Assembly (NCBI RefSeq): GCF_003790525.1
Contig: NZ_CP033635.1
Direction: 5' to 3' (one strand)
Origin: Escherichia coli
Lineage (GTDB): Bacteria > Pseudomonadota > Gammaproteobacteria > Enterobacterales > Enterobacteriaceae
DNA length: 64,000 nucleotides
Position numbers: made by a program. The first letter of the stretch is position 1. Every line of letters starts with the position of its first letter. Below are positions 13,944-18,653 of the stretch, piece by piece.

Positions 13944-16900
13944 TAATTACACTGTGGGTTGACGCCGGAAGAATCAGAGAACAGATACCGTTCTTACTGT
14001 AAAACGTGGCTAATATTAATTGAGCACTGCAGTGTTCAGAGCACAAAGAAGAAAAAAGATGTGTGCGAATGCCTGTAATGTGTTAAAAGAATGTTCCGCG
14101 TTTCCGGTACGCTTTTCGTAACTAACAATGCAGGGTGACGTAACGCTGGTTGTGCCGGAAACGCGTCCCTCCCCCTATCTTTCCTGTTTGGATTTGCCCC
14201 TATATTTCTGGATTATCCGACAAAACCGGCGTGAAGTATTACTCTCGTCGCCCAGCACCATAAGGATAACGCCCATAAAATCATGAAACTTTTCTTCCAG
14301 ATTGGATACAATCAGGCCGTATCCCGTATTACAGGCTTATCACGTGTGACAGTCAGTCTCTGGGTGTGTTCAGGAACATTCCCTGAAATGTCAACCCGGC
14401 CTCCAGAGCGAGGACTTCTGGCCCCATGGAGGGAGTGGTTAAAAGAGCAACGAGAAAGTGGTAACTTCGGCGCGTGGCTGCAAGGATGGCAGCTGATGCT
14501 GCGGCTATATGTGAGGCAATCAGCAGTCGCTGGAATAATGGGGGTTGTCGAAAGTCATGTAAATAGACTAAAAATGCTGAAAGGCCAGATGTATGGTCGA
14601 GCCGGATTTGAACTACTCAGACAGAGGGTCATGAGTCCACTGGCATGAAAATCTCCATCCAGGTTGCGTAAGAGCCACTTTTCATCCGTCGTCGATATCT
14701 GGGATAGCCATAGTGAAATAAAAAGCTGTCTGAATTAAATTATTTTGCACATATATTTTAATCCTGCACTGAATTAAGAATGGGTAATCAGTGACCGCTT
14801 GGACGGTCACTTTTAAGAGAAGGCATTAACAGAGAATGGTAAACAGGCTCAATATATTATGTTGTTGGCACTACAGATGAATGATGGGATGATATTTTCC
14901 AATCCTTTCCATCCCACTCATAAGCGAAACTATAGCGTGCTGAAACTTGTTTTTTATCTTCAAAAGTAAACGTGTAATTCCCTGTATCAAGAGCCATATT
15001 GCATCCAATGCGAATAGTTCTGAAGTTTATTTCTCCAACAGGTTTTTTTTTCAAAAAATGCTCAAAATAGTCAACTCTTTCTGCATCTGTAATCCTAATT
15101 TTTTTTGATACTGTGGGCAGTAAGATCGCATCACTTAAATAGTTATCAGCAACCTTCTTGGCATCACCTGTTTTTAATGATTCATTCCAGCGATCGAATA
15201 ACCTTTCAATGTCTTTACTATCTACCCGAATACACTTAACATTATCTACGTCACTTGCCCACGACGCTCCAGAAAACAGACACAGAATTAAAATATTTAT
15301 TTTTTTCATAACTCCTCCTGATCAGCCTGAAACTTTTTTAAAGTTTAATCATATTAATACAGTGCAACTATTTGATAGTAAAAACGATGTTCTCTATTTT
15401 GTTAATAGATACTTCCTATTGTGTATATATTATGAGATTATTAAGAATAATACTCTCTGGGTCGTAGAGACAGGGTATAAGTCACAGGCTGGTGTGGTTC
15501 GGATGTTCTTGCCCCCTCAATATCAGACTGCTATTGTATCTTAAGTTAACGTTATCCGCTGACGTCGATATTCCCGTGGTGAGAGATAACCTAACGCACT
15601 ATGCGGATGGTTTTCATTGTAATGCTCGAACGCCTCTGCAAGGTTATGCAATGCCGTTATTACATTCAGTTTCGGCATGAACGCGATGTAGTCTTCATTC
15701 ACGTTTTCACGAACCTTTCTGCCATTCTATTGCTCTGAGGGCTACTGACTGCCGTCGTGCAGGGCTCCAGATTCAACTCTCTGGCGAATTGCCGTGTTTC
15801 ATGAGCCGTATAAGCCGAACCGTTATCCGTCCGCCACTGGATTGCTCGTTCCGGTCCTTTATCGCCAAAGCGTTTTTCTATCGCTCCTAACATCACATCC
15901 TGCACTGTCGGCTTTATCGTAACCTCCCGTACTGGTCACGGGCAGACTGTTCATCATGTTAAACCCAGCCGCTGTCAGATCATGCACCGGCCGGATGGCG
16001 GGCTGACCTGCCCCGCCGCGCTGCTGCCCGCCAATCCATTTCTTACCTTCCTTCCCGGTGGCCTGACGTCCGGCCTCGTCCCCTTTCACCGCATCACCGT
16101 CACCGCTGTTCACCACCTTCTTGTACTCTTCCAGCATCGCTGGCCTGCGTCCATTTGCTGCGATCAGAAAAGTCCATCATCCGTTTTGCCATGTTCTGGC
16201 AGTTCAGTTACGCCTTGTCGAAAGCCACATTCGCCTGCAGCACACCGTTGGTGATCATGTCGTACAGGCCGGGGTTGGCACGCTGTATCACCATCGCCGG
16301 CAGACTGGCAGCGGCGCCGGTCGCCCCCTAAATCACATCCCCCATCAGATTTTTAAAGCCGTCGGTCAATCCGTTAAGATGATTACCCACCGTGGTCTTC
16401 AGGTCAAAGTTGCCGCACATCAGATCGCTGCTCCAGCCCAGGTCCATACCCAGCTTCTGCATGTTGCTGCGCGTGGCCAACTGTGAGATCACCGAGCCGC
16501 CACCCAGCGTATAGAACAGTTTGTCGGATACGGCGCCATCCACGGATTTCCCGTAACCGAACGTGCTGTCATTCAGTTTCGGCAGGGAAAGAAGATCAGC
16601 CATCGCCGGAATACTGCAGTACAGCATCACACTCAGTGCCACCATACCTGTTTTCATCTTCATCATCATGGTTCCTTAAAAATTCGTACTGCCAAGGAAT
16701 CGCTGCCCGCGCTTTTCGAAGCAGCTGTAAGGCTGCCACAGTGCAAAGGCTGCATTACCGTTCTCCGCCGCCTGGTGTTCACCATCCGGGAAAACGGCAC
16801 AGGAACGCGACACTGACGGCGTCAGTCGCTGCCATTTGTGATTGCGGGTGCCGGTGTTTTCCTCCACCGCCTCCGGGGGCCAGTAGCCGTCACGTTTCAC

Positions 16901-18653
16901 GCCCTTAACCTCCCTGTAGACATGCGACTCCCCCATCCGCGTGATAATGTCGGCCACCCGCTGAGCCCCCACCGCCGCGGCCCGGTCATCATCGCTCTGC
17001 ATCACAAAACCACTCCGGTGATAAACGCTCCCCCACATGTTTTTATCGGCCTAGCTGCCAATCTCGCGTTTGCCGGGAACCTGTGCCTCTGGATACAGGG
17101 ATTCAGGTAATCCCGTTCGCTAGACGATGCTGTCCAGGGTACTGAGGAAATAGGCCATGGCCGGTGTCACCGGTGAATCACAGCTGAATCCGGGTACCAT
17201 CCCGCCGATAAGCTGTGTGGCCGGATGACCCAGCGCATCTGCATATTTGAAACGAATTGCTGAACGGCGCTTCCCCTGTATTTTCATATCCGCCGGATTT
17301 CCCCCGCCGGCACTCAGCCCGGACAGGCCGTCAGTGATGGCATTCTCCGGGCCACCTGCGGTCCGGCTGACCAGCGACATCTCTTTCCAGGGATTACCAC
17401 CCGGTGCCGTATAGGTGGAAATAACCACTTCCGGGATGAAATGTGTCACCTTCACGGAAATTCTGACCGTACAGCCAGACGCGCTGCAGTAAAGCCAGTA
17501 ACAAATCCCGCTGACACGCCAGCTGATATAGTCCGGTGCCGCAGTACTGGCGATAATGCTGGCGGTGTTCAGTGATACAGACGCCAGGGGCAGTGATGCC
17601 ACACTCAGTAACAGCACGCCGGTACGCAGACGACATTTCAGGGACATCATGGCTGCACTCCTCCCTCAGCACGGATTTTCCCGGCCATCACCACATCCAT
17701 GGTGCCGTAAACCACCTCACTGTCATCAAACACCACGGCAGGGTATTTCTTCACGCCCAGCGACTAGGCATGTGCCACATCGCGGTAATGACCGGCCAGT
17801 TCCGCCTGCATCGTCTGCCATTCGGGAGACTTCATACGTACCCTGACCACCGATTCAGCCTCACCCGCATCAGCAGGCAACAGGCCCCAAAAGCGGCTCT
17901 GAAGCTGCTCAGGCGCATCCAGCAGAACCACCCTGACACCATCAGGAGGATTAACGGGAAGATGCTGAGAATCGGTATAAATTGTTGTGCCGGCAGACGC
18001 TGCCAGCGGCAGGAAAAACAGGGAACAGAAAATCCGGTACATCGTACACCTCAGTCAGATAATATCTGACTGACAGCGTGCGAAGAAAGCGCTCATTTAT
18101 CAGCAATAAATTAAAAACGGGATTAAAAAATTACGGTGGGATCCGGGGAAGTGTATCTGCCAAGCATAACAGACAGTCTGTGATTATACCCGGCCTTTCA
18201 CAAAGCCGGGGAACTGATTCATACCAAGTGGTGATTTTCAACAATAAGTATAATGAGGTTGTCCCGGCACCGGTGGCAGTGGTTCGAGATAGACGTCATC
18301 AACAAAAACACAGGGGAATTTTTCAACTGCACATCCAGCACGCTCAGACATTACCTTCAGACTGATACCATGTTTCTCAGCATCAATAAAGAGGACATCT
18401 GCCCCTGTTTCATCCCGGAGATTTGTCGCATGATGCATGATCCGGTGTACTGAAGGACATGTTTTGTAACCAAAAACACATATACGCATGTTGCACCTCC
18501 TGATCACTGGTTGACGCCGATAATAAAACAATAATGTGAGCGTAAAAAATGCACCTCATACCACATTTCTGTAAAAGGCTCTGGCTATCACTGCAAAAAG
18601 CAAAATCTTAATTCCAGCATCACTTGTTACTCTCATTCCGTCACTTATATTTA

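Follow-up and report, generated by a model that had tools for sequence, protein, structure and literature searches.

Whether the broken minus-strand reading frames next to iha in an IS-rich iron-uptake island of Escherichia coli are the remains of a conjugative element, and how they came to lie there, is the question raised by this locus. The island carries iha, sitABCD, and iutA within the 64-kb window, by which we mean the whole stretch of DNA analyzed, and iucABCD lies just beyond in strain XDL. The original prediction had placed a remnant of a conjugative-transfer module of ICE or plasmid origin at positions 15906-18531, and had considered the similarities too weak for a firm family call. 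The ICE-derived DNA proper was found to be a little narrower, covering 2.2 kb at 15927-18122 on the minus strand, and a firm call could be made, namely to the TIGR03755, TIGR03756, and TIGR03757 families of an MPF_G-class ICE, with 95% nucleotide identity to an intact E. coli ICE. We are confident that this segment is a dead fragment of the distal mating-pair-formation operon of such an ICE, which probably survives because iha adjoins it. ICEs of the MPF_G class include ICEclc, PAPI-1, SPI-7, and ICEHin1056, and in E. coli ICEEc8 and the ~92-kb pheV ICE of strain TUM1887.

Three consecutive pseudogenes were identified within the segment, all on the minus strand, along with a short stretch of ICE-derived bases on the side of iha:

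15927..16666, minus strand, TIGR03755-family ICE pseudogene recognized by a profile match, with the N-terminal 246 of 472 codons kept, including the signal peptide MMKMKTGMVALSVMLYCSIPAMA
16676..17650, minus strand, ICE gene of the TIGR03756 family (TraU-like, IceU-like), not truncated, with two stops in a single frame; annotated by PGAP as a pseudogene with an internal stop
17647..18042, minus strand, ICE gene of the TIGR03757 family (DUF1525), not truncated, with one stop in a single frame; annotated by PGAP as a pseudogene with an internal stop
18043..18122, minus strand, 80 ICE-derived bases upstream of the TIGR03757 gene, the last with homology to intact ICEs by blastn and the edge of the variable cargo site

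The minus-strand reading frames and the motifs quoted for them were confirmed at their places, with the motif SGICYWLYCSASGC located within the ORF at 17120-17650. A search with the TIGRFAM ICE-family profiles gave significant matches to all three families. The fragments as found matched TIGR03756 with E-values of 1.8e-47 and 5.1e-46, TIGR03755 with 1.8e-23 and 5.7e-22, and TIGR03757 with 5.5e-17, and also scored above the gathering scores of Pfam TraU and DUF1525. Once the stops were read as X, all three conceptual proteins passed the curated NCBIfam cut-offs: 371.6 bits versus 188.35 for TIGR03756 and 115.2 bits versus 73.2 for TIGR03757, both with stops read through, and 281.4 bits versus 270.45 for the repaired 246-amino acid N-terminal part of TIGR03755. 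The TIGR03756 and TIGR03757 genes are already annotated by RefSeq (PGAP) as pseudogenes of exactly these families, and the fragment is of a known kind. Long plus-strand ORFs of 121, 141, and 165 amino acids do cover the frames, as had been reported. None of the three has any Pfam family, and they were rejected as real genes and treated as by-products of coding DNA with 57% to 58% G+C read backwards.

An intact version of the segment was identified in the ICE of E. coli TUM1887 (here contig L002), where all three genes are intact and followed by a TraG_N gene. Window positions 15927-18122 correspond to L002 20001-22195 with 95.0% nucleotide identity and to positions 1282-3476 of contig L009 with 93.7% identity, as estimated by blastn, and a set of 5,426 complete E. 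coli genomes yielded no closer intact parent, of more than 95% identity. The TIGR03756 protein showed 93.5% amino acid sequence identity (tblastn) to the intact ICE gene at L002 20749-21723, and the intact 472-amino acid counterpart of the TIGR03755 protein is encoded at L002 19321-20739. The TIGR03757 gene is located directly upstream of the TIGR03756 gene with a 4-base overlap (17647-18042 versus 16676-17650), and the layout of these two genes is the same in the intact ICEs L002 and L006-L010.

Both an ICE and a plasmid had been named as possible sources, and the latter was weighed as an integrated remnant of the tra region (traU, traH) of an F-type (MPF_F) conjugative plasmid. Pfam TraU (PF06834) matched both TraU-like fragments (E-values of 3.3e-16 and 5.9e-20), TIGR03756 belongs to the same TraU superfamily as TraU of the F plasmid, and the F plasmid has a broadly similar gene order, traC-trbI-traW-traU ... 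traH-traG. However, the relation to F-plasmid TraU is distant, and the match is at the superfamily level only, with the ICE-specific model scoring far higher. The best-scoring families are the ICE-specific TIGR03755, TIGR03756, and TIGR03757, at the DNA level the segment is closest to chromosomal ICEs at pheV, with 300 of the 302 related places in E. coli genomes being chromosomal, and no traW, trbC, traN, traF, or traG gene is located near the segment.

For TraH, the signals were weak. The Gly-rich N-terminus behind the earlier "TraH-like" label is present, in that the ORF at 16328-16669 encodes an N-terminal signal-like segment and then a Gly-rich stretch, but a relation to TraH is tentative at best. 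Pfam TraH (PF06122) matched neither the fragments at E ≤ 0.1 nor the intact TIGR03755 homolog at E ≤ 1, and touched 3 of 95 members of the TIGR03755 family, with a best E-value of 0.012. In hhalign comparisons with TraH, a shallow TIGR03755 profile gave a nonsignificant E-value of 0.24, while a profile of 95 sequences gave E-values of 0.0016 to 0.003 and a probability of 10% to 16% against F TraH or the TraH alignment, over only ~75 residues around two conserved Cys. The AlphaFold2 model of the TIGR03755 protein was poor (pLDDT 57.6), and a Foldseek search of the PDB gave no match at E ≤ 0.001. We assign a negligible probability to an F-type plasmid origin, which is refuted in practice by the ICE-specific families and the chromosomal ICE relatives, and of the two sources only the ICE is retained.

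Compared with the TUM1887 ICE, the remnant contained five nonsense mutations, all of which are G:C-to-A:T changes, one +1 frameshift and an IS-mediated truncation. The fragmentation of the frames is as had been described: a single stop interrupts the one frame of the TIGR03757 gene, at 17764-17766 (Trp93 to TAG), and two stops interrupt that of the TIGR03756 gene, at 17120-17122 (Trp177 to TAG) and 17051-17053 (Gln200 to TAG). The TIGR03755 gene contained stops at 16328-16330 (Gln113 to TAG) and 16208-16210 (Gln153 to TAA), one additional base near 16141 and a truncation at ~15927, corresponding to codon 247 of 472, where it is abutted and truncated by an IS remnant:

15541..15926, minus strand, C-terminal remnant of an IS2-like (IS3-family) transposase, matching positions 172-289 of the IS2 TnpB profile; annotated by PGAP as integrase core domain, frameshifted, partial

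Together, the five nonsense mutations, the frameshift and the IS-mediated loss of the second half of TIGR03755 inactivate all three genes. The intact reading frames required of a functional ICE or type IV secretion system are missing from the remnant. Since the same lesions recur in ~56 independent complete genomes, it is unlikely that the stops are assembly errors. The decay was stepwise, with strain LH50-c keeping Gln113 where the window has TAG. The family matches and the lesions support the original prediction of a nonfunctional conjugative-transfer remnant encoding exported mating-pair-formation proteins, as well as its suggestion that the island descends from, or once captured, a conjugative element, in the sense that part of such an element was once in the island.

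Searches of the whole 64-kb window with 49 ICE proteins (tblastn) identified only the three transfer genes and Iha, and another 93 kb of ICE sequence that includes the two ends of the element gave no match in the window (blastn and tblastx). Genes for the VirB4/TraC ATPase, the coupling protein, the relaxase, the integrase, the type IVb pilus and the remaining mating-pair-formation proteins are absent from the 64-kb window, which also contains no tRNA gene. An ssb gene at ~6632-6928 was considered as an ICE remnant but rejected, as it differs from the ssb gene of the ICE. All other ICE functions are missing from the window, and the segment can therefore not promote conjugation; we infer that it does nothing at all today.

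Between the edge of the ICE-derived DNA and the far side of iha, three further features were identified:

18238..18489, minus strand, intact GrxA-like ORF of 83 amino acids, in which CPSV replaces CPYC, without a signal peptide
18670..19927, plus strand, complete IS3-family insertion sequence of 1258 bp; its ends are inverted, TGTAGTGG..., and the duplicated target is the 3-bp GTA
20164..22438, minus strand, iha with short flanks (iha itself at 20237-22324, 695 amino acids), 93.4% identical to L002 22581-24851 by blastn

The glutaredoxin-like protein had been counted as part of the module. The ORF is real and GrxA-like, with MRICVFGYKTCP...FPCVFVDD located within the ORF at 18238-18531 and the ATG at 18489 as the likely start, but it was rejected as ICE backbone. 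It was absent from the same position in all six intact ICEs examined (L002, L006, L007, L008, L009, and L010), none of which holds the segment that contains it (18123-18669 plus 19928-20163), and it is present in other contexts: on contig L011, a relative with 88% identity lies ~2 kb away from an ssb gene, and another with 69% identity is located in a ter/sit island. Judging from this distribution, the ORF is adjacent cargo. It is colinear with E. coli glutaredoxin 1 (GrxA, PDB 1EGO) over residues 1-68 versus 1-69 (phmmer E-value of 5.8e-4), and the active-site Cys-Pro and the cis-Pro region are kept (FPCVFVDD versus VPQIFVD). Unlike GrxA, it lacks the second Cys of the CPYC dithiol motif, which is replaced by CPSV here and in all relatives retrieved. 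It scored below the curated cut-offs of NF008401 (32.7 versus 84 bits), TIGR02183 (26.3 versus 106.5) and Pfam Glutaredoxin (14.4 to 15.0 versus 22.9), and the family is tiny, with 13 clusters that contain only E. coli records and metagenome or read-assembly contigs. The IS3-family element at 18670..19927 arrived late: strain XDL, whose island is identical in other respects, does not have it, nor does contig L011. It was also noted that metagenome contig L012 represents a noisy assembly of the same island.

The dN/dS values of the remnant versus the intact ICE ranged from 0.33 to 0.69, as compared with 0.07 to 0.15 for L002 versus L006/L010, which are intact but diverged ICEs, all based on small counts, and by this measure selection on the remnant looks relaxed. 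An alternative is that the fragments have been retained for a new function, such as envelope redox or interference with incoming ICEs, either as truncated N-terminal products with signal peptides or with the Grx-like protein as a partner. The block is kept at ≥99% in ~56 to 59 complete genomes of human, poultry, and wild-bird origin, although recent shared ancestry would equally give high identity among carriers. Each of the three genes still has its start codon and signal peptide, and the 176-amino acid N-terminal TraU-like fragment could still be made, but the lesions are still accumulating, the Gln113 stop being present in some carriers only, and dN/dS is raised relative to the intact ICE. 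DUF1525 is predicted to be thioredoxin-like (PMC10018362) and a thioredoxin-fold ORF adjoins, yet the Grx-like protein has no signal peptide and would not meet periplasmic partners, and it also occurs without ICE genes. We therefore consider a retained function very improbable.

The iha allele in the window was most similar to that of the TUM1887 ICE, with identities of 93.4% at the nucleotide level and 95% at the amino acid level, as compared with ~86% to the common O157/UPEC allele. The iha segment in the window corresponds to the iha insert at the cargo site of the TUM1887 ICE, and is ordered and oriented in the same way with respect to TIGR03757. The gene order TraC - small gene - iha - TIGR03757 - TIGR03756 - TIGR03755 was found in TUM1887, in SCU-171 and in the published ICEEc8 (PMC6455142). 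In related ICEs, the cargo site, which is located directly upstream of TIGR03757, is empty or contains other cargo. Most likely, the island acquired or retained iha from an ICE that carried it at this site, and later IS activity and point mutations would have eliminated or inactivated everything else in the ICE, with the fragment probably surviving because iha adjoins it.

Alternatively, iha may have landed as a separate segment beside an unrelated decayed ICE fragment, in which case the remnant would be uninformative about its arrival. The adjacency could also have arisen by recombination of the iha segment with an unrelated ICE scrap. The homology to L002 22581-24851 ends within ~20 bp of the boundaries of the insert (L002 22560-24869), as set by an ICE with an empty site, and iha also occurs in many unrelated island settings. 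Furthermore, no ICE backbone was found past the iha promoter (beyond 22438), such that the TraC side is missing and the ancestral junction is preserved on one side only, and on the other side 787 bp (IS excluded), including the Grx-like ORF, separate TIGR03757 from the iha segment and are present in no intact ICE examined. Against a chance meeting, iha is followed by TIGR03757, TIGR03756, and TIGR03755 on one strand exactly as in two diverged ICE lineages, and the remnant (95.0%) and the iha allele (93.4%) share their closest relative, a TUM1887-type ICE. Juxtaposition by chance would need to reproduce the order, the orientation and the shared closest relative, and we regard it as unlikely.

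More tentatively, and with some doubt on our part, the cargo site of ICEEc8-family ICEs, between the small gene on the TraC side and TIGR03757, may be the ancestral home of iha, from which E. coli islands gained the gene at least twice from decaying ICEs, once per allele lineage, with the remnant described here as the clearest footprint. The two iha alleles are 85.7% identical and their ICE backbones 81% to 83%, that is, about equally diverged, and each allele found on islands matches that of one ICE lineage at ~94% identity. In the common O157/UPEC iha loci, ~97 bp can be aligned to the backbone at the hot spot of an ICE whose site is empty, giving a local score of 43 to 45 versus a shuffle maximum of 17. 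However, this 97-bp "backbone" could itself be the scar of a former iha insert, and the transfer could run in either direction.

As a sequence feature, the ICE fragment is ordinary, a decayed piece of a well-described ICE family. Its value, a modest one, is historical, in that it ties the iha copy of the island to an ICEEc8-like conjugative element and suggests how iha reached the island. This supports the general picture of IS-driven erosion as a possible route from conjugative elements to nonmobile pathogenicity islands, in which selected cargo alone is left intact. The specific stop codons and the IS junction provide a marker for tracing this island variant among E. coli from humans, poultry, and wild birds. 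No specific description of a named island with iha-sit-iuc and this ICE remnant was found in the literature.

Among known elements, the closest is the pheV ICE of TUM1887 (NZ_CP128963.1, ~800.1-892.6 kb), an ICEEc8-like element of the SPI-7/PAPI-1 type. The remnant shares with it the order, orientation, and 4-bp overlap of the three genes. The TUM1887 ICE is complete, with an integrase at tRNA-Phe, TraI, TraD, the TraC ATPase, and ~20 further transfer genes, a type IVb pilus, ParA/ParB, and a SPI-7-type DnaB, whereas the window keeps only 2.2 kb and iha, with every transfer gene broken. Furthermore, the 364 bp of backbone located between TIGR03757 and iha in the TUM1887 ICE is replaced in the window by the segment with the Grx-like ORF.

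The only functional data for these families come from ICEclc of Pseudomonas, which contains the same three families in the same order, orf57827 - orf56883/iceU - orf55476, followed by a gene for a 119-amino acid protein and a TraG_N gene (Daveri et al. 2023, PMC10018362). A type I signal peptide is present in each of the three proteins; the TIGR03755 protein Orf55476 and the TraU-like protein IceU, which is located at the cell envelope, are essential for transfer, while the thioredoxin-like DUF1525 protein Orf57827 has a partial effect (PMC10018362). Homologs of TraU, TraW, TrbC, TraF, and TraH have been reported for MPF_G (Guglielmini et al. 2014, PMC4027160); the published TraH homolog is Tfc22. 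Where the element is intact, the products of the three genes are exported by the Sec pathway and form part of the type IV secretion apparatus in the periplasm. Unlike the remnant, ICEclc is intact and functional, a distant ortholog in another genus, with genes for RadC and a DsbA-family protein rather than iha between DUF1525 and VirB4.

A published pheV ICE is ICEEc8 of the STEC O117:H7 strain FHI72 (Montero et al. 2019, PMC6455142), in which ORFs 49-55 (Table S7) encode, in order, a conjugative ATPase, a hypothetical protein, Iha, TIGR03757, TIGR03756, and TIGR03755 (PMC6455142). ICEEc8 represents a different lineage from the remnant: SCU-171 (L010), a close relative of it among the complete genomes, shares only ~79% identity with the window across the three genes and carries the common 696-amino acid iha allele, which is ~86% identical to that of the window. 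The window nevertheless fossilizes the tail end of this gene arrangement.

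The minus-strand ORFs with exported-protein features and the motifs named in the original prediction were found where it had placed them, in a region with a G+C content of 57-58% as compared to 42-45% in both flanks. The ORFs and neighboring features were:

16328-16669, minus strand, ORF with a signal peptide and a Gly-rich N-terminus
16676-17038, minus strand, ORF
17120-17650, minus strand, ORF holding SGICYWLYCSASGC
17764-18042, minus strand, ORF
18238-18531, minus strand, ORF with MRICVFGYKTCP...FPCVFVDD
18238-18489 (most likely extent), minus strand, intact Grx-like ORF of 83 amino acids
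18670-19927, complete IS3-family element of 1258 bp with a 3-bp target duplication (GTA)
20237-22324, minus strand, iha, on the same strand as the TIGR03757 gene and just upstream of it

In a profile-HMM search, the unrepaired ORFs matched the NCBIfam families TIGR03755 (E = 1.8e-23 and 5.7e-22; profile positions 1-67 and 135-205), TIGR03756 (E = 1.8e-47 and 5.1e-46; positions 1-150 and 180-297), and TIGR03757 (E = 5.5e-17), as well as Pfam DUF1525 and TraU with scores above gathering. The TraU assignment is solid. With the stops read through, the conceptual proteins scored 281.4 bits for TIGR03755, 371.6 bits for TIGR03756, and 115.2 bits for TIGR03757, against curated cut-offs of 270.45, 188.35, and 73.2. 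The resemblance had been described as weak and as precluding a firm family call, but it is strong, and since all three families pass their curated cut-offs on read-through, the call is firm. The fragmentation of the reading frames was borne out, the TIGR03756 gene being one 325-codon frame with 2 internal stops and the TIGR03757 gene one 132-codon frame with a single internal stop. The long overlapping antisense ORFs were also present on the plus strand (121 to 165 amino acids), and no Pfam family was found in those covering the 3 genes. In the RefSeq annotation of XDL, a strain whose island is identical except for the missing IS3-family element, the TIGR03756 and TIGR03757 genes are listed as pseudogenes with an internal stop and the N-terminal TIGR03755 piece as a hypothetical protein.

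The TraH label for TIGR03755 is unproven. Pfam TraH gave no match to the TIGR03755 fragments at E<=0.1 or to the intact protein at E<=1, and was touched by 3 of 95 family members (best E 0.012). A profile of these 95 sequences could be aligned to F TraH along a stretch of about 75 residues surrounding a pair of conserved cysteines (hhalign E 0.0016-0.003, probability 10-16%), and an AlphaFold2 model was too low in quality for use in the comparison. A single TraH homologue, Tfc22, has been reported for MPF_G (PMC4027160).

A lower-stringency search recovered intact versions of the block in other E. coli at 95%, 80%, 75%, 72%, and lower identity. The closest was the ICE of strain TUM1887, with 95.0% identity over 15927-18122. 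Of the 2 sources originally proposed, an ICE or a plasmid, the source is an ICE. In TUM1887, the 3 genes are intact (131, 324, and 472 amino acids) and are followed by a gene for 119 amino acids and a TraG_N gene, with the conjugative ATPase, TIGR03751/52/49, PFL_4703, TIGR03750/45/58, RAQPRD, TIGR03747, TraD, and other transfer genes upstream. The element is about 92 kb, ends at tRNA-Phe next to yqgA/speC, and also encodes a tyrosine recombinase, TraI, UvrD, a type IVb pilus cluster with a shufflon, ParA/ParB, SPI-7-type DnaB, topoisomerase III, and ssb. It was also noted that it carries a Tn7-like transposon (L019 1-10300, L002 1-3300, both from TUM1887) whose class 2 integron contains estX and sat2 together with aadA1, which is frameshifted, and intI2, which is interrupted by a stop codon, so that together with iha, virulence and resistance genes are linked on one conjugative element.

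Codon-by-codon comparison with TUM1887 as the reference identified the following lesions:

17764-17766, TIGR03757, Trp93 to TAG
17120-17122, TIGR03756, Trp177 to TAG
17051-17053, TIGR03756, Gln200 to TAG
16328-16330, TIGR03755, Gln113 to TAG
16208-16210, TIGR03755, Gln153 to TAA
near 16141, TIGR03755, 1 additional base
15927, TIGR03755, break with all codons after 246 missing, where an IS2-like transposase remnant starts

All 5 stops were G:C-to-A:T transitions. The LH50-c copy shares the other 4 stops, the frameshift, and the truncation, but retains CAG (Gln) at codon 113, where the window has TAG at 16328-16330, so the decay was stepwise; this difference could mark sub-lineages of the island. 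The dN/dS values were 0.33-0.69 between the segment and the intact ICE, as compared to 0.07-0.15 between the diverged intact ICEs of TUM1887 (L002) and L006/SCU-171 (both from small counts). Beyond the 3 genes and iha, no further ICE genes were found in the 64-kb window, nor was a tRNA gene. With 5 stops, a frameshift, a truncation, and the other ICE genes absent from the window, the segment, previously described as probably non-functional, cannot support conjugation. Just past the IS remnant is an intact gene for an SgcJ/EcaC-family (SnoaL-like) protein of 150 amino acids with an N-terminal signal-like segment (14857-15309, minus strand), which is frameshifted in LH50-c.

The glutaredoxin-like protein was confirmed as an intact ORF, but not as a member of the transfer module. 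It aligns colinearly to glutaredoxin 1 of E. coli (PDB 1EGO, E 5.8e-4), with CPSV where glutaredoxin 1 has CPYC, and no signal peptide was found. The family comprised 13 clusters among 5.8 billion, all from E. coli records and metagenome or read-assembly contigs. It was absent from all 6 intact ICEs examined, and relatives were found in a ter/sit island (69% identity, annotated as "thioredoxin domain-containing") and on contig L011 (88%), where an ssb gene lies about 2 kb away. Membership in the ICE backbone was therefore rejected, and the ORF is adjacent cargo with no evident tie to the conjugation module. The IS3-family element is missing from XDL and L011, and entered beside the Grx-like ORF later; an Rfam isrC match (18738-18860, 150 bits) lies wholly within it, and the "sRNA" match is thus IS sequence.

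The segment was present at 99.9-100% identity on the chromosomes of about 56-59 complete E. coli genomes, with humans, poultry, and a wild bird as hosts. In XDL, it is surrounded by an IS-rich island with iha, sitABCD, iucABCD-iutA, sodC, and a PhoX gene. Mapping of the XDL annotation placed a short ssb, a PerC-family regulator, and a ProQ/FinO-family gene between IS elements at 6632-7518. This ssb is 89% identical to the one near the Grx-like gene on L011 and unrelated to the ssb of the TUM1887 ICE, and the cluster may be a leftover piece of a different mobile element. Other Rfam matches were to a group II intron domain (49590-49676), isrN (30242-30384), and STnc490 (54584-54705); the corresponding stretch of XDL has numerous IS fragments, along with an ltrA pseudogene for a group II intron reverse transcriptase.

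In TUM1887, iha is located within the transfer operon, between a small post-ATPase gene and TIGR03757. The same arrangement was seen in SCU-171, whose lineage has an identity of only about 80%, and in ICEEc8 of STEC O117:H7 (Table S7 ORFs 49-55; PMC6455142). The site is empty in the related ICEs of G1/2 and FDAARGOS_1287 and holds AraC and DUF1187 genes in CH4811 and DUF1187 in NC101, which identifies it as a variable cargo site. The window iha was 93.4% identical in nucleotide sequence (95% in amino acids) to the TUM1887 allele, but only about 86% to the common allele, which is carried by O157, ST131, and further lineages (about 1,500 records). Thus, iha and the segment have a common closest relative, and the ICE order and orientation are kept. 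Independent juxtaposition of iha and the ICE scrap would fit an altered junction, in which 787 bp found in none of the ICEs examined replace 364 bp of backbone between TIGR03757 and iha, and the lack of ICE backbone past the iha promoter in the window. As the junction is not pristine, we retain this alternative, but consider it very improbable. The most parsimonious account is that the island carries part of an ICE of the TUM1887 type and that iha, the selected cargo gene, alone escaped decay. The TUM1887 match and the iha synteny thus support the suggestion that the island descends from, or once captured, a conjugative element.

Whether ICEEc8-family ICEs were the ancestral carriers of both iha allele lineages is a more tentative matter, and we lean somewhat against it. 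The alleles and the ICE backbones have diverged in parallel (85.7% versus 81-83% identity), and every island allele has about 94% identity to the allele of one ICE lineage. Furthermore, about 97 bp upstream of iha in the common loci of O157:H7 and ATCC 25922 (L016 and L017 7329-7426) align with backbone sequence at the hot spot of an empty-site element of the ICEEc8 lineage (L006 11218-11314; local score 43-45, shuffle maximum 13-17). Between the iha region of the SCU-171 ICE and the O157 locus, 2462 bp are shared at 94.3%, reaching 73 bp beyond the insert boundary. Such similarities suggest that ICE hot spots and classical iha islands have exchanged DNA. The TUM1887 iha insert lies between the two copies of an imperfect direct repeat, each about 92 bp long (L002 22468-22559 and 24870-24961), and both copies match one stretch of an empty-site ICE (L009 3749-3840), in which the 3' end of the small post-ATPase gene is located; the repeat may be a trace of the entry of the insert.

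The TUM1887-type gene set defines MPF_G, the ICEclc/PAPI-1/SPI-7/ICEHin1056 family (Guglielmini 2014, PMC4027160). In ICEclc (PMC10018362), the same 3 families occur in the same order as in the segment, and each of the 3 proteins has a type I signal peptide. Transfer of ICEclc requires both the TIGR03755 gene and the gene for the TraU-like protein IceU; the effect of the DUF1525 gene, whose product is predicted to be thioredoxin-like, is partial (PMC10018362). The segment is a decayed fragment of this known ICE family beside a known cargo gene, mostly annotated in RefSeq, rather than a new kind of system.
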